Shown here: piece by piece, positions 1 to 62,100 of the stretch | Layout: each line of letters opens with the position of its first letter | Position numbering within the stretch: the first letter of the stretch is position 1 | DNA from: Balanoglossus misakiensis | Taxonomy: Eukaryota; Animalia; Hemichordata | Length of the DNA: 64,000 nucleotides | Direction of reading: 5' to 3' | Assembly: GCA_040954595.2 (NCBI GenBank) | Contig: CM082593.2 | Span: 6,980,043-7,044,042, forward strand | Translations under genes and position numbers: made by a program | The notes under the pieces: model-generated | Databases searched by the model: none | What the model was told of the DNA's origin: nothing | What the model saw: the letters and a program-made list of their open reading frames with translations, nothing else

Positions 1-3000
1 GGGTTATAGCCCATGAAAATCATCCAAAATTGACGATTTTTCGACTTTGCGAGATATCAAAATTTCTTCATTTTTTTGAAAAAATCATGGGTTATAGCCC
101 ATGAAAATCATCCAAAAATGACGATTTTTCAACTTTGCGAGATATGAAAATTTCTTCATTTTTTTGAAAAAATCATGGGTTATAGCCCATGAAAATCATC
201 CAAAAATGACGATTTTTCCACTTTGCGACATATCAAAATTTCTTCATTTTTTTGAAAAAATCATGGGTTATAGCCCATGAAAATCATCCAAAATTGACGA
301 TTTTTCGACTTTGCGACATATCAAAATTTCTTCATTTTTTTGAAAAAATCATGGGTTATAGCCCATGAAAATCATCCAAAAATGACGATTTTTCCACTTT
401 GCGAGATATCAAAATTTCTTCATTGTTTTGAAAAAATCATGGGTTATAGCCCATGAAAATCATCCAAAATTGACGATTTTTCGACTTTGCGAGATATCAA
501 AATTTCTTCATTTTTTTGAAAAAATCATGGGTTATAGCCCATGAAAATCATCCAAAATTGACGATTTTTCCACTTTGCGAGATATCAAAATTTCTTCATT
601 TTTTTGAAAAAATCATGGGTTATAGCCCATGAAAATCATCCAAAAATGACGATTTTTCCACTTTGCGAGATATCAAAATTTCTTCATTTTTTTGAAAAAA
701 TCATGGGTTATAGCCCATGAAAATCATCCAAAAATGACGATTTTTCCACTTTGCGAGATATCAAAATTTCTTCATTTTTTGAAAAAATCATGGGTTATAG
801 CCCATGAAAATCATCCAAAAATGACGATTTTTCCACTTTGCGAGATATCAAAATTTCTTCATTTTTTTGAAAAAATCATGGGTTATAGCCCATGAAAATC
901 ATCCAAAATTGACGATTTTTCCACTTTGCGAGATATCAAAATTTCTTCATTTTTTTGAAAAAATCATGGGTTATAGCCCATGAAAATCATCCAAAAATGA
1001 CGATTTTTCCACTTTGCGAGATATCAAAATTTCTTCATTTTTTTGAAAAAATCATGGGTTATAGCCCATGAAAATCATCCAAAAATGACGATTTTTCCAC
1101 TTTGCGAGATATCAAAATTTCTTCATTTTTTTGAAAAAATCATGGGTTATAGCCCATGAAAATCATCCAAAAATGACGATTTTTCCACTTTGCGAGATAT
1201 CAAAATTTCTTCATTTTTTTGAAAAAATCATGGGTTATAGCCCATGAAAATCATCCAAAAATGACGATTTTTCGACTTTGCGAGATATCAAAATTTCTTC
1301 ATTTTTTTGAAAAAATCATGGGTTATAGCCCATGAAAATCATCCAAAAATGACGATTTTTCCACTTTGCGAGATATCAAAATTTCTTCATTTTTTTGAAA
1401 AAATCATGGGTTATAGCCCATGAAAATCATCCAAAAATGACGATTTTTCGACTTTGCGAGATATCAAAATTTCTTCATTTTTTTGAAAAAATCATGGGTT
1501 ATAGCCCATGAAAATCATCCAAAAATGACGATTTTTCCACTTTGCGAGATATCAAAATTTCTTCATTTTTTTGAAAAAATCATGGGTTATAGCCCATGAA
1601 AATCATCCAAAAATGACGATTTTTCGACTTTGCGAGATATCAAAATTTCTTCATTTTTTTGAAAAAATCATGGGTTATAGCCCATGAAAATCATCCAAAA
1701 ATGACGATTTTTCGACTTTGCGAGATATCAAAATTTCTTCATTTTTTTGAAAAAATCATGGGTTATAGCCCATGAAAATCATCCAAAAATGACGATTTTT
1801 CGACTTTGCGAGATATCAAAATTTCTTCATTTTTTTGAAAAAATCATGGGTTATAGCCCATGAAAATCATCCAAAATTGACGATTTTTCGACTTTGCGAG
1901 ATATCAAAATTTCTTCATTTTTTTGAAAAAATCATGGGTTATAGCCCATGAAAATCATCCAAAAATGACCATTTTTCGACTTTGCGAGATATCAAAATTT
2001 CTTCATTTTTTTGAAAAAATCATGGGTTATAGCCCATGAAAATCATCCAAAAATGACGATTTTTCCACTTTGCGAGATATCAAAATTTCTTCATTTTTTT
2101 GAAAAAATCATGGGTTATAGCCCATGAAAATCATCCAAAATTGACGATTTTTCGACTTTGCGAGATATCAAAATTTCTTCATTTTTTTGAAAAAATCATG
2201 GGTTATAGCCCATGAAAATCATCCAAAAATGACGATTTTTCCACTTTGCGAGATATCAAAATTTCTTCATTTTTTTGAAAAAATCATGGGTTATAGCCCA
2301 TGAAAATCATCCAAAAATGACGATTTTTCGACTTTGCGAGATATCAAAATTTCTTCATTTTTTTGAAAAAATCATGGGTTATAGCCCATGAAAATCATCC
2401 AAAATTGACGATTTTTCGACTTTGCGAGATATCAAAATTTCTTCATTTTTTTGAAAAAATCATGGGTTATAGCCCATGAAAATCATCCAAAATTGACGAT
2501 TTTTCGACTTTGCGAGATATCAAAATTTCTTCATTTTTTTGAAAAAATCATGGGTTATAGCCCATGAAAATCATCCAAAATTGACGATTTTTCGACTTTG
2601 CGAGATATCAAAATTTCTTCATTTTTTTGAAAAAATCATGGGTTATAGCCCATGAAAATCATCCAAAATTGACGATTTTTCGACTTTGCGAGATATCAAA
2701 ATTTCTTCATTTTTTTGAAAAAATCATGGGTTATAGCCCATGAAAATCATCCAAAATTGACGATTTTTCGACTTTGCGAGATATCAAAATTTCTTCATTT
2801 TTTTGAAAAAATCATGGGTTATAGCCCATGAAAATCATCCAAAAATGACGATTTTTCGACTTTGCGAGATATCAAAATTTCTTCATTTTTTGAAAAAATC
2901 ATGGGTTATAGCCCATGAAAATCATCCAAAAATGACCATTTTTCGACTTTGCGAGATATCAAAATTTCTTCATTTTTTTGAAAAAATCATGGGTTATAGC

Positions 3001-6000
3001 CCATGAAAATCATCCAAAAATGACGATTTTTCGACTTTGCGAGATATCAAAATTTCTTCATTTTTTTGAAAAAATCATGGGTTATAGCCCATGAAAATCA
3101 TCCAAAAATGACGATTTTTCGACTTTGCGAGATATCAAAATTTCTTCATTTTTTTGAAAAAATCATGGGTTATAGCCCATGAAAATCATCCAAAAATGAC
3201 GATTTTTCCACTTTGCGAGGTATAAAAATTTCTTCATTTTTTTGAAAAAATCATGGGTTATAGCCCATGAAAATCATCCAAAAATGACGATTTTTCCACT
3301 TTGCGAGATATAAAAATTTCTTCATTTTTTTGAAAAAATCATGGGTTATAGCCCATGAAAATCATCCAAAATTGTCGATTTTTCCACTTTGCGAGATATC
3401 AAAATTTCTTCATTTTTTTGAAAAAATCATGGGTTATAGCCCATGAAAATCATCCAAAAATGACGATTTTTCCACTTTGCGAGATATCAAAATTTCTTTA
3501 TTTTTTTGAAAAAATCATGGGTTATAGCCCATGAAAATCATCCAAAAATGACGATTTTTCCACTTTGCGAGATATCAAAATTTCTTCATTTTTTTGAAAA
3601 AATCATGGGTATAGCCCATGAAAATCATCCAAAAATGACGATTTTTCCACTTTGCGAGATATCAAAATTTCTTCATTGTTTTGAAAAAATCATGGGTTAT
3701 AGCCCATGAAAATCATCCAAAAATGACGATTTTTCGACTTTGCGAGATATCAAAATTTCTTCATTTTTTGAAAAAATCATGGGTTATAGCCCATGAAAAT
3801 CATCCAAAAATGACCATTTTTCGACTTTGCGAGATATCAAAATTTTTTCATTTTTTTGAAAAAATCATGGGTTATAGCCCATGAAAATCATCCAAAAATG
3901 ACGATTTTTCGACTTTGCGAGATATCAAAATTTCTTCATTTTTTTGAAAAAATCATGGGTTATAGCCCATGAAAATCATCCAAAAATGACGATTTTTCGA
4001 CTTTGCGAGATATCAAAATTTCTTCATTTTTTTCAAAAAATCATGGGTTATAGCCCATGAAAATCATCCAAAAATGACGATTTTTCCACTTTGCGAGGTA
4101 TAAAAATTTCTTCATTTTTTTGAAAAAATCATGGGTTATAGCCAATGAAAATCATCCAAAAATGACGATTTTTCCACTTTGCGAGATATCAAAATTTCTT
4201 CATTTTTTTGAAAAAATCATGGGTTATAGCCCATGAAAATCATCCAAAAATGACGATTTTTCAACTTTGCGAGATATGAAAATTTCTTCATTTTTTTGAA
4301 AAAATCATGGGTTATAGCCCATGAAAATCATCCAAAAATGACGATTTTTCCACTTTGCGAGATATCAAAATTTCTTCATTTTTTTGAAAAAATCATGGGT
4401 TATAGCCCATGAAAATCATCCAAAATTGACGATTTTTCGACTTTGCGACATATCAAAATTTCTTCATTTTTTTGAAAAAATCATGGGTTATAGCCCATGA
4501 AAATCATCCAAAAATGACTATTTTTCCACTTTGCGAGATATCAAAATTTCTTCATTGTTTTGAAAAAATCATGGGTTATAGCCCATGAAAATCATCCAAA
4601 ATTGACGATTTTTCGACTTTGCGAGATATCAAAATTTCTTCATTGTTTTGAAAAAATCATGGGTTATAGCCCATGAAAATCATCCAAAATTGACGATTTT
4701 TCGACTTTGCGAGATATCAAAATTTCTTCATTTTTTTGAAAAAATCATGGGTTATAGCCCATGAAAATCATCCAAAATTGACGATTTTTCGACTTTGCGA
4801 GATATCAAAATTTCTTCATTTTTTTGAAAAAATCATGGGTTATAGCCCATGAAAATCATCCAAAATTGACGATTTTTCGACTTTGCGAGATATCAAAATT
4901 TCTTCATTTTTTTGAAAAAATCATGGGTTATAGCCCATGAAAATCATCCAAAATTGACGATTTTTCGACTTTGCGAGATATCAAAATTTCTTCATTTTTT
5001 TGAAAAAATCATGGGTTATAGCCCATGAAAATCATCCAAAAATGACGATTTTTCCACTTTGCGAGATATCAAAATTTCTTCATTTTTTGAAAAAATCAAG
5101 GGTTATAGCCCATGAAAATCATCCAAAAATGACGATTTTTCCACTTTGCGAGATATCAAAATTTCTTCATTTTTTGAAAAAATCATGGGTTATAGCCCAC
5201 GAAAATCATCCAAAAATGACGATTTTTCGACTTTGCGAGATATCAAAATTTCTTCATTTTTTTGAAAAAATCATGGGTTATAGCCCACGAAAATCATCCA
5301 AAAATGACGATTTTTCGACTTTGCGAGATATCAAAATTTCTTCATTTTTTTGAAAAAATCATGGGTTATAGCCCATGAAAATCATCCAAAAATGACGATT
5401 TTTCCACTTTGCGAGATATCAAAATTTCTTCATTTTTTTGAAAAAATCATGGGTTATAGCCCATGAAAATCATCCAAAAATGACGATTTTTCCACTTTGC
5501 GAGATATCAAAATTTATTCATTTTTTTGAAAAAATCATGGGTTATAGCCCATGAAAATCATCCAAAAATGACGATTTTTCCACTTTGCGAGATATCAAAA
5601 TTTATTCATTTTTTTGAAAAAATCATGGGTTATAGCCCATGAAAATCATCCAAAAATGACGATTTTTCCACTTTGCGAGATATCAAAATTTATTCATTTT
5701 TTTGAAAAAATCATGGGTTATAGCCCATGAAAATCATCCAAAAATGACGATTTTTCCACTTTGCGAGATATCAAAATTTCTTCATTTTTTTGAAAAAATC
5801 ATGGGTTATAGCCCATGAAAATCATCCAAAAATGACGATTTTTCCACTTTGCGAGATATCAAAATTTCTTCATTTTTTTGAAAAAATCATGGGTTATAGC
5901 CCATGAAAATCATCCAAAAATGACGATTTTTCGACTTTGCGAGATATCAAAATTTCTTCATTTTTTTGAAAAAATCATGGGTTATAGCCCATGAAAATCA

Positions 6001-7895
6001 TCCAAAAATGACGATTTTTCCACTTTGCGAGATATCAAAATTTCTTCATTTTTTTGAAAAAATCATGGGTTATAGCCCATGAAAATCATCCAAAAATGAC
6101 GATTTTTCGACTTTGCGAGATATCAAAATTTCTTCATTTTTTTGAAAAAATCATGGGTTATAGCCCATGAAAATCATCCAAAAATGACGATTTTTCCACT
6201 TTGCGAGATATCAAAATTTCTTCATTTTTTTGAAAAAATTATGGGTTATAGCCCATGAAAATCATCCAAAAATGACGATTTTTCCACTTTGCGAGATATC
6301 AAAATTTATTCATTTTTTTGAAAAAATCATGGGTTATAGCCCATGAAAATCATCCAAAAATGACGATTTTTCCACTTTGCGAGATATCAAAATTTATTCA
6401 TTTTTTTGAAAAAATCATGGGTTATATCCCATGAAAATCATCCAAAAATGACGATTTTTCGACTTTGCGAGATATCAAAATTTATTCATATTTTTGAAAA
6501 AATCATGGGTTATAGCCCATGAAAATCATCCAAAAATGACGATTTTTCCACTTTGCGAGATATCAAAATTTCTTCATTTTTTTGAAAAAATCATGGGTTA
6601 TAGCCCATGAAAATCATCCAAAATTGACGATTTTTCCACTTTGCGAGATATCAAAATTTCTTCATTTTTTTGAAAAAATCATGGGTTATAGCCCATGAAA
6701 ATCATCCAAAATTGACGATTTTTCCACTTTGCGAGATATCAAAATTTCTTCATTTTTTTGAAAAAATCATGGGTTATAGCCCATGAAAATCATCCAAAAT
6801 TGACGATTTTTCCACTTTGCGAGATATCAAAATTTCTTCATTTTTTTGAAAAAATCATGGGTTATAGCCCATGAAAATCATCCAAAATTGACGATTTTTC
6901 CACTTTGCGAGATATCAAAATTTCTTCATTTTTTTGAAAAAATCATGGGTTATAGCCCATGAAAATCATCCAAAATTGACGATTTTTCCACTTTGCGAGA
7001 TATCAAAATTTCTTCATTTTTTTGAAAAAATCATGGGTTATAGCCCATGAAAATCATCCAAAATTGACGATTTTTCCACTTTGCGAGATATCAAAATTTC
7101 TTCATTTTTTTGAAAAAATCATGGGTTATAGCCCATGAAAATCATCCAAAAATGACGATTTTTCCACTTTGCGAGATATCAAAATTTCTTCATTTTTTTG
7201 AAAAAATCATGGGTTATAGCCCATGAAAATCATCCAAAATTGACGATTTTTCCACTTTGCGAGATATCAAAATTTCTTCATTTTTTTGAAAAAATCATGG
7301 GTTATAGCCCATGAAAATCATCCAAAATTGACGATTTTTCCACTTTGCGAGATATCAAAATTTCTTCATTTTTTTGAAAAAATCATGGGTTATAGCCCAT
7401 GAAAATCATCCAAAATTGACGATTTTTCCACTTTGCGAGATATCAAAATTTCTTCATTTTTTTGAAAAAATCATGGGTTATAGCCCATGAAAATCATCCA
7501 AAATTGACGATTTTTCCACTTTGCGAGATATCAAAATTTCTTCATTTTTTTGAAAAAATCATGGGTTATAGCCCATGAAAATCATCCAAAATTGACGATT
7601 TTTCCACTTTGCGAGATATCAAAATTTCTTCATTTTTTTGAAAAAATCATGGGTTATAGCCCATGAAAATCATCCAAAATTGACGATTTTTCCACTTTGC
7701 GAGATATCAAAATTTCTTCATTTTTTTGAAAAAATCATGGGTTATAGCCCATGAAAATCATCCAAAATTGACGATTTTTCCACTTTCCGAAAGATCAAAA
7801 TTTCTTCATTTTTTTGAAAAAATCATGGGTTATAGCCCATGAAAATCATCCAAAAATGACGATTTTTCGACTTTCCGAAAGATCAAAATTTCTTA
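1..7895. repeat. 88-bp tandem satellite array, ~90 copies, runs off the left edge
   Basis: Unit gggttatagcccatgaaaatcatccaaaa(a/t)tgacgatttttc(g/c)actttgcgagatatcaaaatttcttcatttttttgaaaaaatcat recurs every 88 bp with few variant sites; ends abruptly at ~7895. Confidence 0.98.
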
Positions 7896-8106
7896 TATAA
7901 CTCATATATGTTCGGAAGAAGCCCCTCCACGGCGACAGAGTGGTTCTGTAAGGGACAAAATACGTCCCAAGAAGCACGTCCACCAACCGCGTGCTTCTAA
8001 GAAGAATGTCTGAAAATGACAAAATCACCATGTCAAGAATTCCATTCATACTTTTCTTTTAAATTAAGAAATCAGCACGTAAACATTTTGCCAAAAATTG
8101 TTCATT

Positions 8107-8112
8107 TTTATT
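8107..8112 (-). terminator. Candidate polyadenylation signal (AATAAA) of the kelch gene; further copies at 8188-8197
   Basis: tttatt on + strand in AT-rich sequence ~2.6 kb downstream of the kelch stop; no transcript evidence. Confidence 0.35.
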
Positions 8113-8480
8113 CAATAAATAGTTACAATTAAAACGTCTGTTTTACATGCATACTTTATATATCTATATGCTTTTATCTGGCATAAATTTATTTATTTCA
8201 CCGCACCATCATTTCTCATGGTGTGCAGACTTCAAGCACAAAAAATAACTAATGCAATAATATGAAAGTACCAGTGGATTAAAAGTACTCTGATATAAGA
8301 CATTGATTATAGTTTAATTTTGTGTAATGCAATCAACTGTCCTGCACAGAGGATAGAATCACATTGATGACATAATTTTTGGTCAATGGTAGAAATTCCT
8401 TCAGAGAAGTTGTCAAGTTTTCGGGCACAACAATATGCCATGCTGAAAAATTACATACCAGAATTGATGTGGTCGATAGT

Positions 8481-8496
8481 CGCCACTAGAGGGCGC
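8481..8496 (+). promoter_or_regulatory. CTCF-like binding motif CGCCACTAGAGGGCGC
   Basis: Matches the bilaterian CTCF core CCACYAGRGGGCGC; isolated GC-rich motif in AT-rich DNA. Confidence 0.6.
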
Positions 8497-9560
8497 CGTT
8501 AGGACAGCACCTGCCATATAAAATGCCAATATAAATGCAATGGGCTCAAATATTATCAGCTATGTGATAATCAGTATTTTATCTGGCAGTCTATCACACA
8601 GCAAATATAATTGAATAAAGTTTAGCAACTGTTTCCAAGTGGCAAAAATAATTCACTAATAACCCTATTTACATTTCCATACTGTCTCCATATAATTTAC
8701 ACAAGCCTGGCCCGTACAACTGCGTTCTCAGATTATTTTGTGACCACACATGTTGAAAATGCAAATTCGCTCATTCTTTCATCATTTCTTTCAGTCAAAC
8801 AAAGCTGCATAACAGAATAACAGACAACAGGAAATCTCAGAAATCGAAAGTTTAAATAAATATGTAACTAAAGTTGGCACACAATAAAAATATGTGTCTT
8901 CACGATAAATAGAAAGAGTCTGTCAGTGTTAGCCGTTATCACTGCCCTGTGTACGACTTGTCTAAAGGCATCTCCAATTGCCAGCAAAACTGTTCACATT
9001 CGTCCAGTTTTCCACACCCTGTACATCAAAACCCAAGCAACTTCCTAACAAATGCCCAAGGGAAATAATTTAAGGAAAAGAAAAAAACGTTTCAGTTGCC
9101 CGTAACCATAGCCACCACATCCCCCCCCCCCCCCCACTGCAACAGCTGGAGTAGGTAATTCGACCCCTGTCATGTCAATGGTGCGAGCCAGATGGTACAA
9201 ATATACAATAGCATGGGTTACCACAATACAGAACAGAGGGGTGTCAAGTCTCTGTCACAAAAGATTCGAAACCCAAAAATGGTATCACAAACCACTATTC
9301 AAAACACATGACCAAATATCTGTTGGTGAATAGTAAAGTTTCCATGGAGATAATTTTCTTAATATATTTAAATATATACAATGTACTAGTATTGAAATAC
9401 TTTCTAATACTGTCTGGATTATACACAAGGTGATATTTTTTACAAAAAATATTGATTGAAATGACATGACTATGCTAACGAAGTCCTTCATATCACATTG
9501 ATGCAAACACTAAAATACATGTACTATTGTACCTTTTCAGGTTTCCAGCATTGTTGTTAC

Positions 9561-9919
9561 TTTAAAGGGACAAAGTCTCTCTCTCGCTGCCCTTTTTCTA
9601 TTAATTATGTTTGATACAAGACACAGTTTATGTTAGTCTACATGTTGATATATAGTGAATCAATGTTCAACCACACACAACTTCTATCTCATTTGAAGAC
9701 ACGAGAGTGAAAAAACTCGGCAAAATGAATAATCGGTGTTTACCATTTATTCATTTTGGCGAGATTTTTACTCTCATATCCTACAATCGGGATGGAATTT
9801 GTGTGTGGTCGAACGTTGATTCACTACATATACACATGTACATTAACATAAACAGTGTCTTGTATCAATCATAATTAATGGAAAAAAGGGCAGCGAGAGA
9901 GAGACTTTGTCCCTTTAAA
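9561..9919. mobile_element. Foldback MITE (~360 bp, palindromic along its length), TTAA-flanked, Kolobok-like termini
   Basis: ttaa-AGGGACAAAGTCTCTCTCTCGCTGCCCTTTTT ... AAAAAGGGCAGCGAGAGAGAGACTTTGTCCCT-ttaa; arms remain complementary up to a short central loop near 9740. Confidence 0.85.
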
Positions 9920-10606
9920 ATAAAATATGGTAAAAACTGAAATGAGAATCTATAAGAAGGAGGCGATGTTCACAATTGACAAAGGAAATACAGTGTTTAA
10001 CATGTAAGAACTGAAAAAGATCTGCAATAAAACATTTCTTGTCCGCTCCACTGTGGGTGAAGTCTCGTATTTCAGATGCCATCACAACAAATAACTTACT
10101 ATCGCATTTTGGCTTATAGGTGCACCATCCCACCCTATTCTGTACTGCAGTTTGGTTCGGTCCTGTCAGCTTCCATGGCGAAGTTGGACCTGCACATTTG
10201 GGGAATGGGGACCAGAGGGTTTCGCTTGTGCCCTGGGTTATTGCTATGCATTTATTTACACTCCAAAGTGGACAATGTTGTGTCTCTACATGACAATGTC
10301 AGATTGTTGTCATCATCGACCCCTCAGGGATATCCATCCATCTGTCTGTTAGGATATTATGCTCGCTGTCCATCTATCTGTACAAGCGCGGGTATTTGCC
10401 AGAATATGCAGGATGATAAATACAAACATGCAACATCACGTGCTAAGCAGCGGTGCACATATCTCAAGAGTTAACCACAGGTCGATGTTTCGCGTCTTGG
10501 TGAAAGTGGGCAAGTTGCTCAGAGATTTGCTGCACGCCCCTTCCGTGGCTGAAACCCTGAACACAAAACTGCACAGTCAATCACGTCCACACAACACTCA
10601 AACACA

Positions 10607-10687
10607 TCAGACCGCAGTGTTCTCCATGCGACGCGTGATCGACTGGCACGACTGGCAAGCCTCGTTCTCCTCCTCATCCATGTCTAG
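10607..10687 (-). CDS. Putative stop-codon-readthrough extension of kelch (LDMDEEENEACQSCQSITRRMENTAV*)
   Basis: TCC-TGA-CTA-G context; 26 in-frame GC-rich codons to a second TGA at 10609-10607. Confidence 0.6.
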   Translation of the reverse strand, partial: LDMDEEENEACQSCQSITRRMENTAV

Positions 10688-10860
10688 TCAGGAGGGCTTG
10701 TCGATGACCGCAACTCCAGAGTAACTCCTTCCGGTCGTCATACAGGAGGGAAGTAGTATCCACGTGTCCGTGCGCGGGTTGTAACACTCGACAGACGCAA
10801 GGTTGGATGTGCCGTCGTCCCCGCCAACGACGTACAACAGACCATTCACAGTACAAACAC
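10688..10860 (-). CDS. KLHL2/3: kelch last coding exon (Kelch repeat 6, ..GVAVIDKPS*)
   Basis: tttcag acceptor; TGA at 10690-10688. Confidence 0.93.
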
Positions 10861-13015
10861 CTGAAATAAAACAGGGCAAGGTTTACTCAATAAACGTACT
10901 AGTATATGTCAACTTTCTCTTTGCTTGATAAGATCAATTGTCAGTTAAGCTCCTGACTGATAATATCATATGAAAACTCAGGAATATTTTTCTAAAATTA
11001 TAACATTGAAAAGAAAATAACATTGAAAAGAAAGAAAATATGGCATGGGTTTCCTTTTTTGTATCTTGAATAAAATTGCCTTGGTGATCATCAAACATTT
11101 CAAAAGTATGCGGTAGCTTTCACAACTTAAAGTTTGTGACAAATTTCTCACAATCACACACTTTTCCAAGAATAGAAAAATACCTTGGAAGCACTGAGAG
11201 ATTCTCATCAAGACTGCGCTTGTAAATGCATAAAATCTCACAAATTTGAGGTATCCCCACACACACAAACACAAATTTTGCCAAACTCCAGGAGTCTTTT
11301 TGTGATCGCCTCAATGCTTACTGCCCGACAGCTCAGCACGAAATTTGCATAAAGTCCCCCTAGCTGCGAGTTCATTAGTGACACCCTCACCTGCATTTCT
11401 CCTGCAAAGCGTCATGTCCGCCACCTGCGTCCACTGATTCAGATCAGGGTTGTAAACTTCCACACTTTTTCTCACCAAGGGTCCATCGTGGCCTCCGACT
11501 GCATACAACAAGGAGCCAACCACTCCAACTCCTGAATTCACAAGAGACAGACAAATATTTGCAATAAGAGATACATCAGTGTTTTAAAATGGTGGTAGCA
11601 TAAGTTCATATGTACTGTACTTTGCTGTTCATTCTATTATTGGAATGTTACACGGAAATTCTTAGTAGTGTAATGTCGTGTAACTTTTAATACCAAAAAT
11701 GCTGACATTAAAACTGATATTTGCTTCACTTTGTAGAATTTGGTCAGCTTACCGGCCCCACTTCTACGACAGCTCATTTCAGCCACGATCGTCCATTCAT
11801 TGGTTGAGGGGTCGTATCTCTCTACAGAACTCAGGCAGTGACGAGACGCGCCATCATACCCCCCGACCGCATACACATATCCTACAGAAAACATTTACAA
11901 TGTTATTGTCAACAAGAAGATATTGTGAATGGGGCATTCATATGAGTTGAAATAAAAGTAGTATGTGATGGGGGATTAAATCTATCAGGAGCAAATGACT
12001 ACGGTTAAACCATTCATTGAAAATGGGTGATTTCCTTCAAACAGTTCCCCCTCTCCCACACTTCTGCACTGAAACAACTAAATATGCTAATGAATACGAT
12101 CAAACCATTGATAAAAAAGGGGTGATTCATACCTCCAAGTACGGCCACCCCTACACTACTTCTCCTGACACTCATCGTAGCAATCGGTTGCCATTCATTA
12201 CACTTTGGATCAAACCTCTCACAACTTGCCAGACCTACATGAGACAAAAAGCATCATCCATGAAATAATAAACAAATTACATTTAAGTTATCATAGCTGT
12301 GGCCACAATTCATAGTGTTATGACATCATTTTGGAACATCAAATGCACCACATTCCAACTGTCATGTGATGACTGTCAACCTATCAATGATCACCATAGG
12401 TATCATCATCTAATTTAAATATGGAAGATCTCACATGACAGCTTGATAAGGACATTTCACATGCTATTACCAATACTAGTTTTATTCAAGAATTTCTCTG
12501 AGTGAGGACAGACAAGTACATGTAGTTAAAAGGGTCGGATCAGGGATACTGCATAAAGCATGTGATATTTTCTACATACAAGTACATTATCACGATGTGC
12601 TATTCAAACAATATTTTCAAAACTTCTCACCTGTTGAACCATCAAAGCCTCCAATGGCATAGACTATATTATTCAACACAGCAACTCCAAGCGTACTGCG
12701 CCTGGCTTCCATAGACGCCACTGACGTCCACTGATCCTTCGAGGGATCGTACACGTCAACCGTACGCACGCGTAGGGAACCATTGAATCCGCCCACCGCA
12801 AATATCAGACCATTCATCACTGCAACACCTGCGGAAAAAAATTGGCCACAGTTGATGTAACTTTTACAGAGATGCAGGATTAGTCATGTGATTGTGGTAC
12901 AAACAGTCATACACATACATACACAGATTACATACACACACACACATACATACATACATGCTTGCATGCATGCATACATACATACACACACACACACACA
13001 CATACATACATACAT

Positions 13016-13048
<33 letters not shown>

Positions 13049-13065
13049 TACATACATACATACAT

Positions 13066-13102
<37 letters not shown>

Positions 13103-16100
13103 TACATACATACATACATGTACACACACACACACACACCATTATATGTATTCTTACCTGCTCTACACCGTCTTGACGCCATCTCTGCCACTTGGTACCA
13201 CTTCTCTTCGTGAAAATCATAACATTCTACACTGCGTATTGCCTTGGGGGCTTGGCCTCCAACCACATACATTAACTGCAATGGAAACATAATTACAAAA
13301 TTGAACATAATCTGGTGACGATTTGTCAATATTCAAATTGATAAAGCGCTGTGTGTCATTAAAATATAACATAAAATAATAGATTTATGACATTGAACGA
13401 TGGACAAAACAAGCCCATTCAATGCTGAGACTAAGGTGAAAGCTGGACAGAACTGAACAGTGACCTTGAAAATACTATCAGGGGTCACTGTGACATTATA
13501 GCAAGTGTATGCATATTCACAAGCTTTTTCTAAGCTATCCTTTTGCTCTGGTCGTTGCCAGTGTTGTTGTTAGTTACTCTGGTCTTTTGTTGTTGTTATT
13601 TACTTTCCTCATTCCTGTGTTTATTTCTATAGATGCTCTTTATGGCACCTGTAAATGGGCCTCTGGCTTATTGGTTTACCAAAATAAATAAAATATAAAC
13701 AAATAAAACCGGTGTCAGTATTCATGAATCCCCATGTATAAGTGTGCTGTAATACTACACAGTACATCATCTATCTTGAAACCATACGGTTGTCCATATG
13801 CCATCATGTTGTTCAGATAAAGACAGTGTGTATAAATTATCCAGGTTCACAGATATGTGAGTGGTTCACTGTTAAGTGCTTGGAAGCATGTAGTTTTATG
13901 CCAGAAAGTTGAACAACCTCCCATTGTGGTCTAAACGAAGTTTACTCTGATTGGTCAATTTCCTGATAGGTTTATTATGTATGCAGGTGCGCACTGCGTG
14001 TATGTAACCAATAAGGTGCAGATGAGGTAGTGTAGATAGTTCGTCCGGCATATTTGTTTATACAAGCCAATCACAGTAACCAGTCTTGCTATCTCTCGCA
14101 TATTACCAACAAATCATCTATCAATTTATGGAGAACCAGTGTGTGAATGATGTGGTGTTTAGAACATAGGATTATTTTGCGATACCCTTTTTTTTTAGAA
14201 GACAACTGCCAATTACTGATATTTTTTCCATGAATAAAATTTTCCCGAATACACACAAGTCAAAGCGAAATACTTTAGACAGCGTTGTTTCAACTGAACT
14301 TTATTATAAAGTAAGAAAAGTGCTTTTTTGAACTTGTCTCTATATGTGTGCAAGTTAGTTAAGATCTTGATTTAATGATTTTGGAGCACGATGAAAAAAA
14401 TTCACCGTTCTCATATTAAAACCTCACTTGCTATACTCACAAGTGTTAGAATTCTCAGAAAACAAAGCTTTCATCTGAATACATAAATAATTCCCACGAG
14501 ATTTAACCTCAGTGAGTTATTTAAATTTCCCCATCCTTCATCAAGCAGATATAGGGTACTTTTTTCTGATGTCTTTTCAATTCAAGTACGCTTAAAGGTA
14601 TACAGTCACCTCCAATTTACACACGCCCATATATGGCTTAAATGGTGTATTTGAGTGTTCAAAAGAACATATGGTGGCGCTCATTTTTTCGCGGCACTGA
14701 AAATCTGTGATTGGCTAGATCTCAATTTGCCATGGTAACTATAGGTTAATTTTCCACAGGTGACCGTATACCTTTAAACTTGTCGGCCAGATTTAACTTT
14801 TGAAAATTGTAAAATACACACTTTTGGTAGTCCGATGGGCGTCCTTGGCCTCGTGCGTGGCGTCTTCAGCATGGATCTCTGATCGCTCGACAGCAAGTGG
14901 TATTTCATGGCTTCAATTAAGTAGTCCTTGCAGGTATTGTTGGATTTCACCAGCATCTCTTCCTCCACCGTCTGCACCAGAAATTCGCGGGACAGCAACG
15001 GTAGTCGTACGTTCTCCATCAACACCGCCATGTGCGGTTCGCGGTTCGCCGAGTCGTGGTGGACCCACGCAATCACAGCCTCAAACACCTTCACATGAAA
15101 AAATTTTTTTTATATTACTATTACATTTTTAGACGCTACTAAAAGATCATGTGATGTTAAATTTTACATAATTATATTTTTGTATACTCTCAATTAGATT
15201 TGTTTACATTTTGAATTTGTGACAAATTGCACTATCCAACTTCCTGATACACACAATATGCATAAACATGCATAGTATCACATAAACGTTGATAATATAA
15301 GACAGTCACTAGACATGACTACACTGGTACTCCAATATTAGAGAAAACAAGCAAATCATTTCAGCTAAAGCATCAAGGATTAGTTGTACAGTTGATCTGA
15401 CTTTAAATCAATCGATGTAAGTTGAACAACACTGATTTACAGATGAAGTTTTCATAAGTATTTTCTTGCACAGCCATGAAAAGTTAATGCCATATTACTA
15501 GATTTCACTGTGCTAGACAGCCTTGCGAGTTTATAACTTTGTCGCTTGGCGCGCATAATGACTCCCTAGCAATGGAAAGAAACTTGTTCGCAAGAGTACT
15601 GCTGATTGCAATTATCAGCCAATATTTTGGATTTTCCAGACATAGTAAAATCCAAAACTTCAAATTCCAAAAAAAACAACCACAGCCTCAAATTTCAAGG
15701 ATAATGTGAAATAGTTTTAACTTTTACCTTTTCTTCTGTAGAAACTGTAAGATGATCTGATGAAATCAATTCACAGACTTGTTCAGCTGACAAAGCTAAA
15801 AATTCATCACCTTGAATCACTTCACTGAAATGGCAAAATAGAGATAAAAATAATTCAATATCAGAAATATTTAATACACTTGACAGGTTTGATGTTTTTC
15901 AAACAAAACACGATTGACGTCAACATTATCCTGTTATCGTGAGTTCCAGAACTATTTCTGGATCAAACGGATTCATTTAAATCAATTCAAATTGCCAAGG
16001 ACACATAATGATTAAATGTTTATGTTCAGCAAGATTCAAAGTGCATTTCAAAATTTGCCACCAATATAAATAGATCTATGTGAATGTCAAACTATACGTC

Positions 16101-19100
16101 ATGACATGACAGGATGGTTGTTGAAGGAAACAAACCATTTCACTAATTGTTAATATTCTCAATGAAATGATTGACAGCGCAAACTGTCGACATTGAACAC
16201 CAGATAAACAATAAATCCACTGAACATTTTTTTCAATCCTCAGCTCATTATATTATAACCGCAACATTATAACGACACCACAACTAATGAATTACTCAAT
16301 CTGTCAGTTGATTGATTGACATCACATTGTCTGTGAGAAGTATCTTGGGCAGACAAGATCAGATCACCTTGCTCAGATTAAAACACAAAATAATGGTTAA
16401 GGTATACGGTCACCTATGGAAAATTAGGTATATAGTTACCATGGCAAACTGAGATCTAGGCAATCACAGATTTTCAGTAGGTGGCACACACGAATAAAGA
16501 GCGCTTTAGAACGCTCAAAATACTGCATTCTGCCATATATGGGCGTATGTAAATTGGCGGTGACTGTATACCTTTAACAACTACTTGCAATGACAAGATA
16601 TTGGAGAAACACGTAATAAAAAAAAAACAGTAATTTCATCAAAATTGCAAAATTGTCAGACATCTTACCTGAAGTGCTGCATAGTGTAATTCTGTGCAAA
16701 ATTCAACAACTCACTGCATGCATGGACGTCAGCAAAAGCCCGGATACCGAGACAATTTGTAGGGTGAAGCTGACGTTGTAGAAAATCACAGCATGCGTCG
16801 CGCACGTCAGGTAATTGTAGCAGATTAGCTGCAGGTAGTAATGTCTGTCCGGAAATGGGGAAAAAATAAGAAGAAGAAATAACTTAGATAAATAATAGCA
16901 GTCATGAGAATTATTCATCCTATGTGACATTTTAATATGAACTTACTGATGATTATCACATTAGACATTTTGGATGATTTATGACAAATTATTATAGAGC
17001 TACGATTCTTTTGGACGTTTCGACAGATATTAGTTCACTGTGTATACTATGGCAAATTAGTGAAGTACACGATTAAGAAATTTCAGGTACATTCGTGAGA
17101 GGTGTATCTGACTACAAATTGCAGCAAACTTGCAACAGAATTTTCTAGGTTAAGTTTTCTAAATGGAACAGACACCCCAGGATGTCTTGGTGCCGTCACA
17201 TTTGGCCTTGGAGAAAAACCATTCTCAAAACAACAACATTTCGGTCGGACGACACCTAATCTGGATCCTGTATGCCAGTTTAATGACCCTGAAGAAACTA
17301 CATGTAGTGTAACAAGAGCAGCTGAGATTTATGCATTTCACGAGAACACAGATAGCCCAGAGCCACTGACAGATGAATTGAGAAAGAAACATCTGTACAC
17401 ACACACATACAAACTGTATAAATGATACAAACTGTATAGTACATACATACATACATAAATTACATACACACACACACATACATACATACATACATACATA
17501 CATACATACATACATACATACATACATACACACACACACATACATACACACACACAAACACATACATACATACTCACATACATACATAAATGTACATACA
17601 TATTGCATGTATATACACCTAGTTACATGATACTACATCCACACACACAGACTAAGACAGACACAAGACAGACGCACACACACACAGACACTGACATACA
17701 CACACATGAAACAGAACTGTACGACAGACCTGAACATTCTCCTCCGTAACCTGAACTTCAGCCGAATACACATACTCCACAAGCAAGCCCAATGCCTTTC
17801 CGTCAATCTCTTGCAACGTGACACGCTCGGCACGACTCTCCGAGAGCTCGCCGGTAAACATGGCACTGAAGTACGGACTGCACGCGGCTAAAATGACCCG
17901 GTGTGCGGGGATCTCCATCCCCTCCGCTTCAAGTATTACATCGCACAGCTGGTTCTGTCTGTGTAAGATACGGGTGATACCATTCATTGAAGGGGTAAAA
18001 GGGATTACTTTGGTTTACTGTTTTTGTTCGGTGTATCGCATATTTCATAATTATTCCTTGGTCATGAATTATTGGGAACCATCAGTTTTGTTTTTTATGC
18101 TGGTGGACAACTTGAATAGGAATTATTTTCAAAATAGTAATGACTGGTTATAGGTAGTTATGACTGGTTACTGACATGGGTAACCATGCATGAATACATG
18201 ACAGAAGAGAAATGAGCAATTTCCACTCTTCAAAGTTATTTCCTCAGCGCATCCTTCAAACCTGAAAGCATTTACCACTACAGGATTTGGAATCTCTGGT
18301 TGTGATGTTCAGGAAATGAGCATTGAAATTCGGACTTACTTTCTGAGCACGTTGAGTATGTCGAACGCCTTGCTCGTATGCAGAGTGTTTCGGTACGGCG
18401 GGATCTCGTACGACAGGCCCTCCGGCTCGTCCATGTTGCAATACATGCACCTAAAATACAAAAGACAGCAGAAACCACACATCATTATAAATTGACAACC
18501 ACTGTCGTACTTATACACACGTGAGCAAGAATTTCCCCATACCATGCTTGTTCCTGTTGATATTTTTTGCAGACTAACACACAAACACACTGTTTTATAG
18601 TTGCAGTTCAATCTTCACAGGTTTGGAACATAGTTACTGTGTAGTCCCTTGAACATGTCTAGGTTTCAACTCACAACAACAGAGAGTGTGAGCAGGGATG
18701 GAAGCTATGATGAGCTATTATTATTACTAATGAACACACAAATGTAAAAATAATTATCATATACACTCCACATCAAGGAAATGCAGAATGCCATCATGCA
18801 ATCAGGGTTTTAGCCATGTTGTGGTGTACAAGGCAAGAGTTATGCCATGACTGACTGTAAGCCCCTGGCTGTCGTGCATCGTCAACACAGTGGCAGTTTC
18901 TGAGATGGACACCAAAATCCATGCCTTCAAATGGGTCCGTTGTATTGGATTACAATGCACAGCCAGCATAAATTTGAAACTTGATTTCCAAATCTATAAC
19001 CTATTCCCTTGTACACCGACCAAACATTATTTGCAATGTACAGTAACAGGATTAGGCCAGCAAAAATAGTACCACCCCCATTTTTAAATGTAAGGTTCCC

Positions 19101-19240
19101 ATCATACAGCACAAAACAGCAGGGAGATTCTCCCGAAATCCACCTCCAGAGGGGTGTTGGGATGGGTCCTACCTAGACGATACGACTGTCTCCTTCAAAT
19201 CCAACTTCTCGTCACCAGCAATGTAATACGAGGATCTCAT
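10688..19240 (-). CDS. KLHL2/3: Kelch-like protein (KLHL2/KLHL3/Drosophila kelch family), BTB-BACK-6xKelch Cul3 adaptor; 12 coding exons, ~602 aa
   Basis: Exons 19240-19173, 18450-18340, 17958-17730, 16844-16669, 15824-15728, 15088-14822, 13275-13158, 12828-12631, 12234-12133, 11881-11753, 11531-11391, 10860-10688 join in phase (1809 nt). Motifs [17 protein letters not shown] (BTB), [65 protein letters not shown] are typical of KLHL2/3/kelch. Confidence 0.93.
11391..11531 (-). CDS. KLHL2/3: kelch exon ([25 protein letters not shown]..)
   Basis: AG/GT boundaries, 141 nt, phase 1-1. Confidence 0.93.
11753..11881 (-). CDS. KLHL2/3: kelch exon ([20 protein letters not shown]..)
   Basis: AG/GT boundaries, 129 nt, phase 1-1. 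Confidence 0.93.
12133..12234 (-). CDS. KLHL2/3: kelch exon ([20 protein letters not shown])
   Basis: AG/GT boundaries, 102 nt, phase 1-1. Confidence 0.93.
12631..12828 (-). CDS. KLHL2/3: kelch exon ([19 protein letters not shown]..)
   Basis: AG/GT boundaries, 198 nt, phase 1-1. Confidence 0.93.
12908..13139. repeat. Compound (CATA)n/(CA)n microsatellite in a kelch intron
   Basis: Directly visible. Confidence 0.95.
13158..13275 (-). CDS. KLHL2/3: kelch exon ([20 protein letters not shown]..)
   Basis: AG/GT boundaries, 118 nt, phase 0-1. Confidence 0.93.
14592..14777 (+). mobile_element. TTAA-flanked MITE, family A copy 1 (Kolobok-like)
   Basis: TIR ttaaAGGTATACAGTCACCT ... AGGTGACCGTATACCTttaa; related copy at 16397-16577. 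Confidence 0.85.
14822..15088 (-). CDS. KLHL2/3: kelch exon (BACK domain, [17 protein letters not shown])
   Basis: 267 nt, phase 0-0; donor AAA|GTGTGT. Confidence 0.9.
15728..15824 (-). CDS. KLHL2/3: kelch exon ([32 protein letters not shown]), not in ORF track
   Basis: tttcag/gtaaaa boundaries, 97 nt, phase 2-0; BACK-domain sequence. Confidence 0.92.
16397..16577 (-). mobile_element. TTAA-flanked MITE, family A copy 2 (inverted relative to copy 1)
   Basis: ttaaGGTATACGGTCACC ... GGTGACTGTATACCTttaa; interior is the reverse complement of 14592-14777. Confidence 0.85.
16669..16844 (-). CDS. KLHL2/3: kelch exon ([41 protein letters not shown]..)
   Basis: cag/gtaaga boundaries, 176 nt, phase 0-2. 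Confidence 0.93.
17441..17706. repeat. Compound (CATA)n/(CA)n microsatellite in a kelch intron
   Basis: Directly visible. Confidence 0.92.
17730..17958 (-). CDS. KLHL2/3: kelch exon (BTB domain, QNQLCDV..EENVQ)
   Basis: AG/GT boundaries, 229 nt, phase 2-0. Confidence 0.93.
18340..18450 (-). CDS. KLHL2/3: kelch exon ([22 protein letters not shown])
   Basis: ttttag/gtaagt boundaries, 111 nt, phase 2-2; internal in-frame ATGs at 18446 and 18434. Confidence 0.88.
19173..19240 (-). CDS. KLHL2/3: Probable first coding exon of one kelch isoform ([23 protein letters not shown])
   Basis: ATG-initiated open frame ending at AG|GTAGGA in phase 2, matching the next acceptor. Confidence 0.55.
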
Positions 19241-59189: not shown

Positions 59190-62100
59190 GTGAGTGGTTA
59201 CCCGTTACATTGGCTTTCCCGCCGCGGCCATATCCCGCGCCACCGCGAATATCTTGTTCCTACCTGCGCGGAGTCAGCCGCGTCTCAAATCACCGCTCGA
59301 CGTGATTTAACTTCCCCGACTGCTTGTCCCCCGAGATGGTAAATTTGTTACGGGAAAACCTAGTTTCATTTGATTTGCTATAATTAGTTTATTGGCGTAC
59401 CGTGGACTTCTTTCAGTAGCATTTGTTGCCGACAAATTGCTGTATCGTTCCTTTTTATAAAAAAAAAAGTGAAACGGCAACTGGTGCGATGTTTTAGAGG
59501 GCAACGCGCACAGAACAGCAGCGCAGTGACGTTCGTTGATTATACATGTACATGTCTGAAACATGTTCACACAAATTGAACGCCGAGAGGCAACTTTGTC
59601 AAGGTATTGCCTCGCTTTACGACAACAAAACGCTCACACAGTACACCAGACCGACTGGAACTATACAAAACGCATTGTCGTATAGCTTTTTTGTAACTGT
59701 TCCGTCATATTGAACGTGTCCGACAACAGAAATGCGTTAGGGTATATACGAGACGGGTATCTCTTTTCGATACATGCACGGCGTTGTGTCGATCGACAAA
59801 GCAAAGAAACTTGTCCGAGAAAGTGTATTTGTATCTACAGAAGGGCCATTCCAATTTTCACGCGAGAAAAACGCACACCTCTCAACTTGGAACTCAAATC
59901 ACGTAACGACAATGTAGAGTCCCCCTTAAAAGTTAATGCCCGAATTAACGCGCTGATAGGGATATACAGTATATAACACTATACAAAAGAACATTAGATT
60001 TTCTTCGAATATTGGCGCGGAGCTGGCAAATATTGGCCAGTCTGAACGCGTAAAAATTAGGGACAATGTGCAAAATTTGAACGACAAAATTAGAAGGTGT
60101 GTTTGTGCTGCTTACCGCGCGTATCTAAGAATACACCGTGGGCGCGCGCTCGCTGAAGACAGGCGCTCTGTCTTTCTCTTATAGAAAGAAGTTCTTCAGA
60201 TTTGATCAGTCCGCCCACTGCGTGCGGTTATCATGATATAGCCAAGGTGACTTCCCTCTTACGAGGAAATCTGCCGTTTTACTCTGTCGAGTCCTGACCT
60301 AAAATAGAAATCAGGCCTCCTCTATAATGCACATAAAGTTCCCATTCACCCGGAGGCGAAATTGTTGTTTTTGCAGAATGGAGTCAATTTTCTATTTTTC
60401 CGTATTACGGCGAAGGAGCAAAAAAAAAAAGCTTGATCATTTTATCCCGTTCTTCAAAAGCATGCACGTTCATTTTATGTCATACGCACTCTGATAAAAA
60501 TAAGAATATGCTATACAGAGACATAATCAGCGAAAAAAATCTTCCTCATCATTCGCTATTTCAGATTGAAGTATGGAGACATCCGCCGAGCGGGGCAAAT
60601 CAGCATAAGTACCATTAAGGGCAGTTAGGTTTATCTAATGATGCAAATGTGGCAACATATCAACGTGGAATGCGTAAACACTTGTTCCGTGGACATATTC
60701 CTCGGAGGGAGAAGGGGGGGGGGGTTGCTTGATGAAGTGACCGGAGTATTCCATCAATGAATATCGTTCTACATTTCCACTGTCCGCTCACAAAATGACC
60801 ACGGCTTTCGTGCGAGCGAGCGAGCGACTGCTGTCAAAATTAGACCACGGGCTCTTCGTTCATGCGCAGTCTCCACCGTTGCCGACAAATTGACTCGAGA
60901 TCTTTAAACGGTGATAAAGCTTTGGTTCTGATAAGAGACGACTTGAAGTTGTTTCTCTACTCCAGCGGAGAGCGAGACGCTCTCGAGGGCAGAAATGAAG
61001 AAAACGACCTTGTACATTTTTTGTAGTTGAAATAGTGATTTGATCAGTCAAAATTTATATATTGTATATACCAGAGATATTCTGCACAAAATATATACAC
61101 ACTTTAATTAAACTCTAGATTTAACACGAATAATAATGCAAGCATGTCTGTAACAGCGTCGTCCAACGACATCACAAAGAACAACAAGAATGCACAAGTA
61201 TTGCAATGACTGTAAAAACCCACGAACATATTGCAGGCTTGCGCATCGCCATTCGTGTTTCAACAACCACTTAATACGTCACATGGTAAATTATCTCGCT
61301 ATTCAGCCCGATCTCCAAATGGAGCATAAATAGAACAAAATACGTCGCCGAGTCTCATAATTGCGAATATGCAGTTTCATAACCATTGCCGATGAACGAT
61401 AAGATGGGGGTAAACCTCGAGAATAGGCAATCTGCATATACATTGCTGACGTCATCACCAACAGGTGCACGGACGCTCTATTGAGATTCCCCGAGTACCT
61501 GACTAAATAGTCACTCACCAAAAGGTTACCAAGGTTACGTAATGTTCCCCGGGGAAGATTTTCAGCAAGTCTGTCAAATCTTTCCATAGCTTCGGGAGAA
61601 GCATTTTTAATTCCACAATTTCACCAGGAAACTTAATCCCTTGGTATACATTGCTCTGTTTCGCCCTGGAGGATTTTTTTGCGGGATATTCTCTTTCAAT
61701 GTCTTTGTGGAGCGACAGTGCTAACCTTTGGTGACCGCGAAAGGTTATATGACTAAAATGTGAGCGCGGTCTGTCTTTTTGGCTCGCAGAGCACATTTGA
61801 ACGTGCAATACGTGTGCATGTTGTTAGACGGTTTGGGTTTCCAGTGGTTCTGAATCTGTAGAGATCCGGAAAAAACATCAAAAGTTAATACTGCGATAAA
61901 ACAGTCTTAATCTTCTCATTGTTTGGTAAAAAAAAGAATGATCCCATTACATAGTGGAGAAACAAGAACTAGGTTGTTCGGTCTCAACTTATAATCCACA
62001 TAAAGCTGATGGCGGCCATTTTGAATCTCAAATAGTAGGCCTATGTACAGGTAGGTTAAAATAATTGTCGTCCTCAACAAACCGCGATGCGGTGACCGAT

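Follow-up and report, generated by a model that had tools for sequence, protein, structure and literature searches.

The window, the whole 64,000-nucleotide (nt) stretch of Balanoglossus misakiensis DNA that we analysed, carries on its minus strand a KLHL2/3/kelch orthologue (10688..19240), whose 12 coding exons encode a BTB-BACK-six-Kelch protein of 602 amino acids (aa). Exons 1–6 lie at 19240-19173, 18450-18340, 17958-17730, 16844-16669, 15824-15728 and 15088-14822, and exons 7–12 at 13275-13158, 12828-12631, 12234-12133, 11881-11753, 11531-11391 and 10860-10688. Joined, they give an intact 602-aa translation without internal stops, in which Pfam BTB, BACK and Kelch_1 were matched. The nearest protein was kelch-like 2/3 of Ptychodera flava (96.5% identity; XP_070544804.1), followed by the acorn-worm orthologues of Glandiceps talaboti (92%; XP_077999159.1) and Saccoglossus kowalevskii (90%; XP_002730487.1), sea urchin and amphioxus proteins (~75%), a 593-aa KLHL2-type protein (71%) and a Drosophila kelch (63%); these figures come from a 578-aa version in which exon 1 was omitted and one acceptor was off by 3 bases. 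The best solved relatives of the Ptychodera protein are KLHL2 (2xn4, 4chb) and KLHL3 (4ch9), and 13/13 of the WNK-contact residues of KLHL3 named in PMC4019986 and PMC9022995 are retained in the kelch protein. Judged by its BTB-BACK-six Kelch repeat architecture, its best matches to KLHL2/3 and these WNK contacts, the gene belongs to the KLHL2/KLHL3/kelch orthologue group; human KLHL2 (Mayven) and KLHL3, which are Cul3 adaptors for WNK kinases, share its domain order and the end of its first open reading frame (ORF1) (PMC4019986, PMC9022995).

The neighbour of the kelch gene, in head-to-head orientation on the plus strand, is a PKD2-family (polycystin-2) gene (27660-50000). On human 5q31.2, KLHL3 likewise has PKD2L2 beside it (PMC2642994), a likeness which suggests that the kelch–PKD2 linkage is old. 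The first 7,894 nt of the window (1-7894) are a satellite array with an 88-bp unit in ~90 copies (98% matches).

The first stop and its context

At the end of the last exon the minus strand reads AAG CCC TCC TGA CTA GAC ATG GAT GAG, and the first TGA occupies 10690-10688. The UGA that closes the true kelch ORF therefore stands directly before CUAG (10684..10690, minus strand), the context described as a leaky-stop signal in PMC4132726 and PMC5868278. No leakier stop signal is known from animals. Re-reading and translation of the minus strand bore out what the sequence-only reading had reported here, namely UGA-CUAG, 26 open codons and a second UGA. The same end codon was found in 96 of 120 kelch homologues among the matches listed; of the remainder, 14 end at most 6 codons further on, 9 more than 20 codons further on and 1 is shorter. 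All four annotated acorn-worm kelch proteins (4/4, from the genera Ptychodera, Glandiceps and Saccoglossus) have DKPS as their C-terminus. By these comparisons the first stop is at its ancestral position and common to three acorn-worm genera, which excludes a sequencing error or a recent nonsense change, the false signals that Jungreis et al. subtracted (PMC5100048). Sea urchins and sea cucumbers carry sense-coded kelch tails past the ancestral stop position, which shows that the kelch C-terminus tolerates additions. In the records concerned (P0005, P0008, P0037, P0143, P0021) the ancestral stop is lost and the constitutive tails are ~20–40 residues long; they are conserved among sea urchins.

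The stop and its four-base context are those of the vertebrate readthrough genes AQP4, OPRL1, OPRK1, MAPK10, MDH1, LDHB and VDR (PMC4132726, PMC5868278). In human cells, 17 of 17 further UGA-CUAG genes tested were leaky, at 1.3–6.7% versus 0.7% for UGA-C, and the best four reached 6–17% (PMC5868278); a value of 31% is given for OPRL1 (PMC4132726). Because all of the human genes tested leak, leakage at the kelch stop is, by analogy, likely too. Selection on what follows is a separate matter: positive PhyloCSF is reported for only 4 of the 23 human UGA-CUAG genes (PMC4132726, PMC5868278), which sets the prior for a selected tail at roughly one in four or five, and MDH1 and LDHB are functional without positive PhyloCSF (PMC5868278). 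The MDH1 and LDHB extensions carry a C-terminal targeting motif, and the short acorn-worm kelch tail could carry one likewise. It differs from the vertebrate UGA-CUAG genes in coming from an invertebrate deuterostome and in extending a BTB-Kelch ligase adaptor. Kelch and KLHL are absent from the main text of PMC5868278.

The reading frame beyond the stop

The in-frame second ORF comprises 26 codons (LDMDEEENEACQSCQSITRRMENTAV; 10610..10687, minus strand) and ends at a second UGA (10607..10609, minus strand), with further in-frame UGA codons at 10600 and 10579. The nearest AATAAA on this strand, a candidate polyadenylation signal, lies ~350 nt past the second stop (10251..10256), which puts the tail inside the last exon. 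Open frames of at least 26 codons arise by chance with a probability of 0.23–0.40 under three Markov models, so that the length alone is no more than chance and such frames are common. The composition is another matter. GC content at codon positions 1/2/3 is 0.58/0.38/0.81, and the 21/26 third positions that are G or C give a hypergeometric p of 0.005 (0.015–0.028 with repeats collapsed). Periodicity was scored by a three-periodic Markov model, for which 14 segments of PKD2 and 11 exons of kelch served as the training set, and the tail obtained 11.3/11.4/16.2 in frame 0 (Markov order 0/1/2). Among 269 held-out exon windows 12/19/6% scored as high, and among 3324 stop-free non-coding windows 0/0.06/0.3% did; of the stop-free non-coding windows with GC of at least 50%, none of 371 did. 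The windows overlap and are not independent. The GC-rich composition that had been called exon-like is thus borne out, both in GC3 and in a three-frame periodicity above that of most true exon windows.

Several controls bear on how this score is to be read. The periodicity does not extend past the second stop, the 78 nt beyond it scoring −0.6 to −2.8, and a model trained on PKD2 only ranks the kelch frame first of six in the tail. Two repeats within the tail, GAG three times and a 9-nt unit twice, both preserve the frame, and when they are collapsed the score is still 9.4 (order 0 and 1). Without the acidic codons it drops from 11.4 to 1.5 (codons 10–26 alone), which means that the acidic patch, 8 codons long, carries most of the periodicity. 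In a base-by-base scan, 24 windows at 12 places matched the tail's score, an unmasked PKD2 exon among them. An exon that has escaped annotation may lie at 61107-61190 (minus strand), where a stop-free stretch equals the tail in its coding-like frame score. The 78 nt past the stop of 9 other kelch loci (L003, a near copy of L002, excluded) scored −8.1 to +6.6, with 3 of 9 at 5 or above under a model ill-matched to them, and post-stop sequence may thus be a wider null than introns for this score; we took the likelihood ratio for a coding tail as about 5–15, versus 17–290 from density estimates. The tail therefore carries what appears, from a single genome, to be a strong coding signature in the kelch frame, although one that comes mostly from 8 acidic codons.

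Three features stand out in the tail itself. The acidic patch occupies codons 2–9. The CxxC (CQSCQS) to which the sequence-only reading had drawn attention is present, but it consists of a perfect 9-nt tandem duplication (TGCCAGTCG twice, 10657-10640, minus strand) and is thus probably young and incidental, a by-product of recent duplication rather than a functional feature. The C-terminus is ENTAV, in which T-A-V at the free end fits the class I PDZ ligand consensus, S/T-x-V/I/L at the C-terminus; such an end occurs in ~4% of simulated tails and in 1 of 120 homologous proteins among the matches listed. Docking of the Kelch tail on a PDZ scaffold through T-A-V-COOH is accordingly no better than a leading guess, and one we consider unlikely. 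KLHL2/3 bind the WNK4 degron, an acidic 11-mer whose Asp pairs with Arg528 of KLHL3 (PMC4019986, PMC9022995), and 5 of those 11 residues are matched in the acidic patch (p 0.013–0.10, by shuffle type), as against shuffle p 0.23–0.54 for the WNK3 degron. We rejected degron mimicry as weak and post hoc, the patch having Cys in place of the essential Asp. The tail matched no Pfam family and no PDB chain.

Folding predicts an RNA stem at 10570..10648 (minus strand), with pair probabilities of 0.64–0.98 in four windows. Its 12-bp helix, which includes one G-U pair, would join 10645-10634 to 10585-10574, with 3 more pairs across a bulge; it starts 40–43 nt past the first stop and holds the second stop inside its loop. 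Helices of at least 12 bp were predicted in 9 of 706 real background windows, 2 of 1000 base shuffles and 1 of 300 dinucleotide shuffles, in a test of helix length chosen after the helix had been seen. In folding energy the region does not stand out: z is +0.75 over 191 nt, the best of 48 windows has −1.93, and a further estimate gave −1.96 (8/200 shuffles). Another stem, beginning 7 nt past the stop, appeared in only 2 of 4 folding windows and was not relied on. SL2, the stem that matters in fly kelch, begins 31 nt past the stop (bioRxiv 10.1101/2020.06.22.165522), which makes the spacing of the acorn-worm stem at least comparable; the latter may raise the readthrough rate, a weaker suggestion than that of leakage itself. 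Some 700 nt past the second stop lies a MITE-like long palindrome (9557-9923; arms of 41 and 109 nt, 84–98% complementary), which would fold into an extended double-stranded stem, provided that the 3′ UTR reaches it.

Kelch ends at other loci

The sequence-only reading had proposed that the 3′ ends of invertebrate kelch genes be aligned for a conserved TGA-CTAG. Among at least 19 metagenome loci with kelch matches, 10 cover the end of a kelch orthologue; the other 9 were dropped, 2 because an intron precedes the end and 7 because they hold other exons or unrelated repeats. UGA-CUAG was absent from 10 of these 10 distant orthologue ends (two have TGA-C, one TAG-CTAA), so the signal is not pan-bilaterian. 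The same 10 loci yielded no tail similar to the acorn-worm one (second frames of 5–60 codons, best p 0.086), nor did 10 longer kelch homologues (best shuffle p across both sets 0.07–0.09), and it is unlike the tails that sea urchins and sea cucumbers encode as sense (shuffle p 0.2–0.8). The 24 loci fetched (19 metagenome, 5 bacterial, 0 viral) included no acorn-worm locus. When the last exon was read through and used in a protein search, the tail was absent from the matches listed (120 of 174 longer, 55 short), and residues 44–83 of the read-through exon alone gave 4 candidates, none scoring. The sole match of a 34-residue tail query among 1.84 billion representatives, a repetitive 4261-aa leucine-rich protein, was judged spurious. 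Searches of this kind would be expected to miss a readthrough product that has no annotation, and their blanks carry little weight.

Other second frames came to light at these loci. The kelch orthologue at L004:1501-1830 ends in TGA-C, followed by 49 open codons with a GC3 of 0.69 and an acidic stretch, and is possibly a separate readthrough case. An echinoderm-like orthologue (L001:1501-1730) has TGA-C and, after 16 open codons of which the last encodes Val, a second TGA; its frame scores negative and is not similar to the acorn-worm tail (p 0.8). In two crustacean-like records called through TGA (P0164, P0204), an 8-codon acidic frame and a second TGA follow the kelch stop.

Drosophila kelch is the orthologous gene and has its UGA at the same codon as acorn-worm kelch; in both a stem is predicted some 30–40 nt downstream and acidic residues lie near the start of the extension. 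The fly stop context is UGA-AUG and that of mosquitoes UGA-AGC (PMC3159437), and in the fly gene there are stem-loops, and an extension of 782 aa is reached by readthrough of up to ~70% in the adult brain (bioRxiv 10.1101/2020.06.22.165522). Acorn-worm kelch differs from it in the CUAG context, in a second ORF of 26 codons and in having no similarity to fly ORF2. In its working, as far as context and extension allow us to judge, it resembles the vertebrate UGA-CUAG genes and not the fly mechanism. Abundant readthrough was not found outside Pancrustacea in 52 species (PMC5100048; hemichordates are not named in its main text), and PMC13278127, in the part covered, lists kelch for Drosophila only. 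Among the literature matches listed, no readthrough is reported for KLHL2 or KLHL3, for any hemichordate gene or for any non-insect kelch.

Competing explanations and proposed origin

We lean, if only slightly, towards the reading that leaky readthrough yields a Kelch isoform with a selected 27-residue tail. Low-level leakage driven by the context could also occur with a tail that is simply unselected 3′ UTR, its GA-rich repeat and TAV being in frame by chance, and this we hold to be plausible if rather improbable. It would agree with the 19 of 23 human UGA-CUAG genes that lack positive PhyloCSF though all tested leak (PMC4132726, PMC5868278), with an open frame and a PDZ-type end that chance supplies at 0.23–0.40 and ~0.04, and with a periodicity carried by 8 codons, a CxxC made by perfect duplication and a homologous tail that was not found. 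It fits poorly with a score that is attained by no more than 0.3% of stop-free non-coding windows, that stops at the second UGA and that survives the collapse of repeats (order 0 and 1); the helix and the C-terminal motif are further low-probability features, partly independent. Alternatively, translation might stop at the first UGA and start afresh at an AUG six bases on; the product would be a free-standing peptide of 24 residues, or the ORF would act from downstream to tune the translation of kelch. The AUG at 10681 does stand in a strong Kozak context (GACAUGG, with a purine at −3 and G at +4), and nearly all of the periodicity lies from it onward, but neither the CUAG context nor the kelch frame of the ORF would then be explained, and reinitiation after a long ORF is inefficient; we regard this as very unlikely.

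Splicing could account for the coding signature without readthrough if the AG of CTAG served as an alternative acceptor, in frame with the previous exon (phase 1), since the phases match. Most of the sixth Kelch repeat would be lost, however, and with it the last strand, which closes the propeller in Kelch domains; moreover, the CTAG acceptor scores −10.6, where 23/23 real acceptors score −0.5 to 15.2, and 78% of the 5803 AG sites overall rank above it, and the four annotated acorn-worm proteins in the cluster all end in DKPS. We found no usable splice acceptor leading into the tail, an exon-internal intron was rejected as well, and a spliced-in tail is highly improbable. The cysteines that follow the UGA might recall selenocysteine, and the echinoderm sense-coded tails a stop that is an error or a recent nonsense change. 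A SECIS family is absent from the 3 weak Rfam matches in 8000-10900, though, and the one SECIS-like string in a pattern scan lies only inside the palindromic repeat, while the stop position is common to three acorn-worm genera and the echinoderm tails are unlike the acorn-worm tail; these readings are largely refuted, and we give them next to no credence.

In the readthrough reading that we favour, a minority of ribosomes would pass the kelch UGA-CUAG and produce a longer Kelch isoform with a selected, acidic 27-residue tail. A near-cognate tRNA would decode the UGA, at a rate that mammalian reporters would place at about 1–17%, with up to 31% in one assay, and the stem ~40 nt downstream may boost this rate, much as SL2 does for the fly gene. 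Placed behind the final strand of the propeller, the tail would spare the sites for Cul3 and for substrate, its most likely role being to alter where or for how long the adaptor acts. Of the minor Kelch isoform that the sequence-only reading had proposed, the leaky stop (likely) and the single-genome coding signature stand; an ancient origin is not supported, because the fly signal differs and none of the 10 distant loci has UGA-CUAG or a related tail. Readthrough in acorn worms, if real, would therefore most likely be convergent with the fly case, and the tail would have arisen within acorn worms independently of it. A bolder version, in which regulated kelch readthrough was gained twice at one and the same ancestral UGA (in flies with stem-loops and UGA-AUG, in acorn worms with UGA-CUAG and a stem), a PDZ ligand retargets the Cul3 adaptor, and the WNK-degron-like acidic patch may vie for a partner propeller or be captured by it, seems to us doubtful as a whole.

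The prevailing view is that functional readthrough abounds in insects and crustaceans alone and is rare in other groups, with kelch as its classic fly example. If the tail is not conserved, acorn-worm kelch would be one more neutral leaky stop. If it is selected, this would be, by the literature searched, the first readthrough reported from hemichordates, and the same ubiquitin-ligase adaptor would have recruited readthrough twice.
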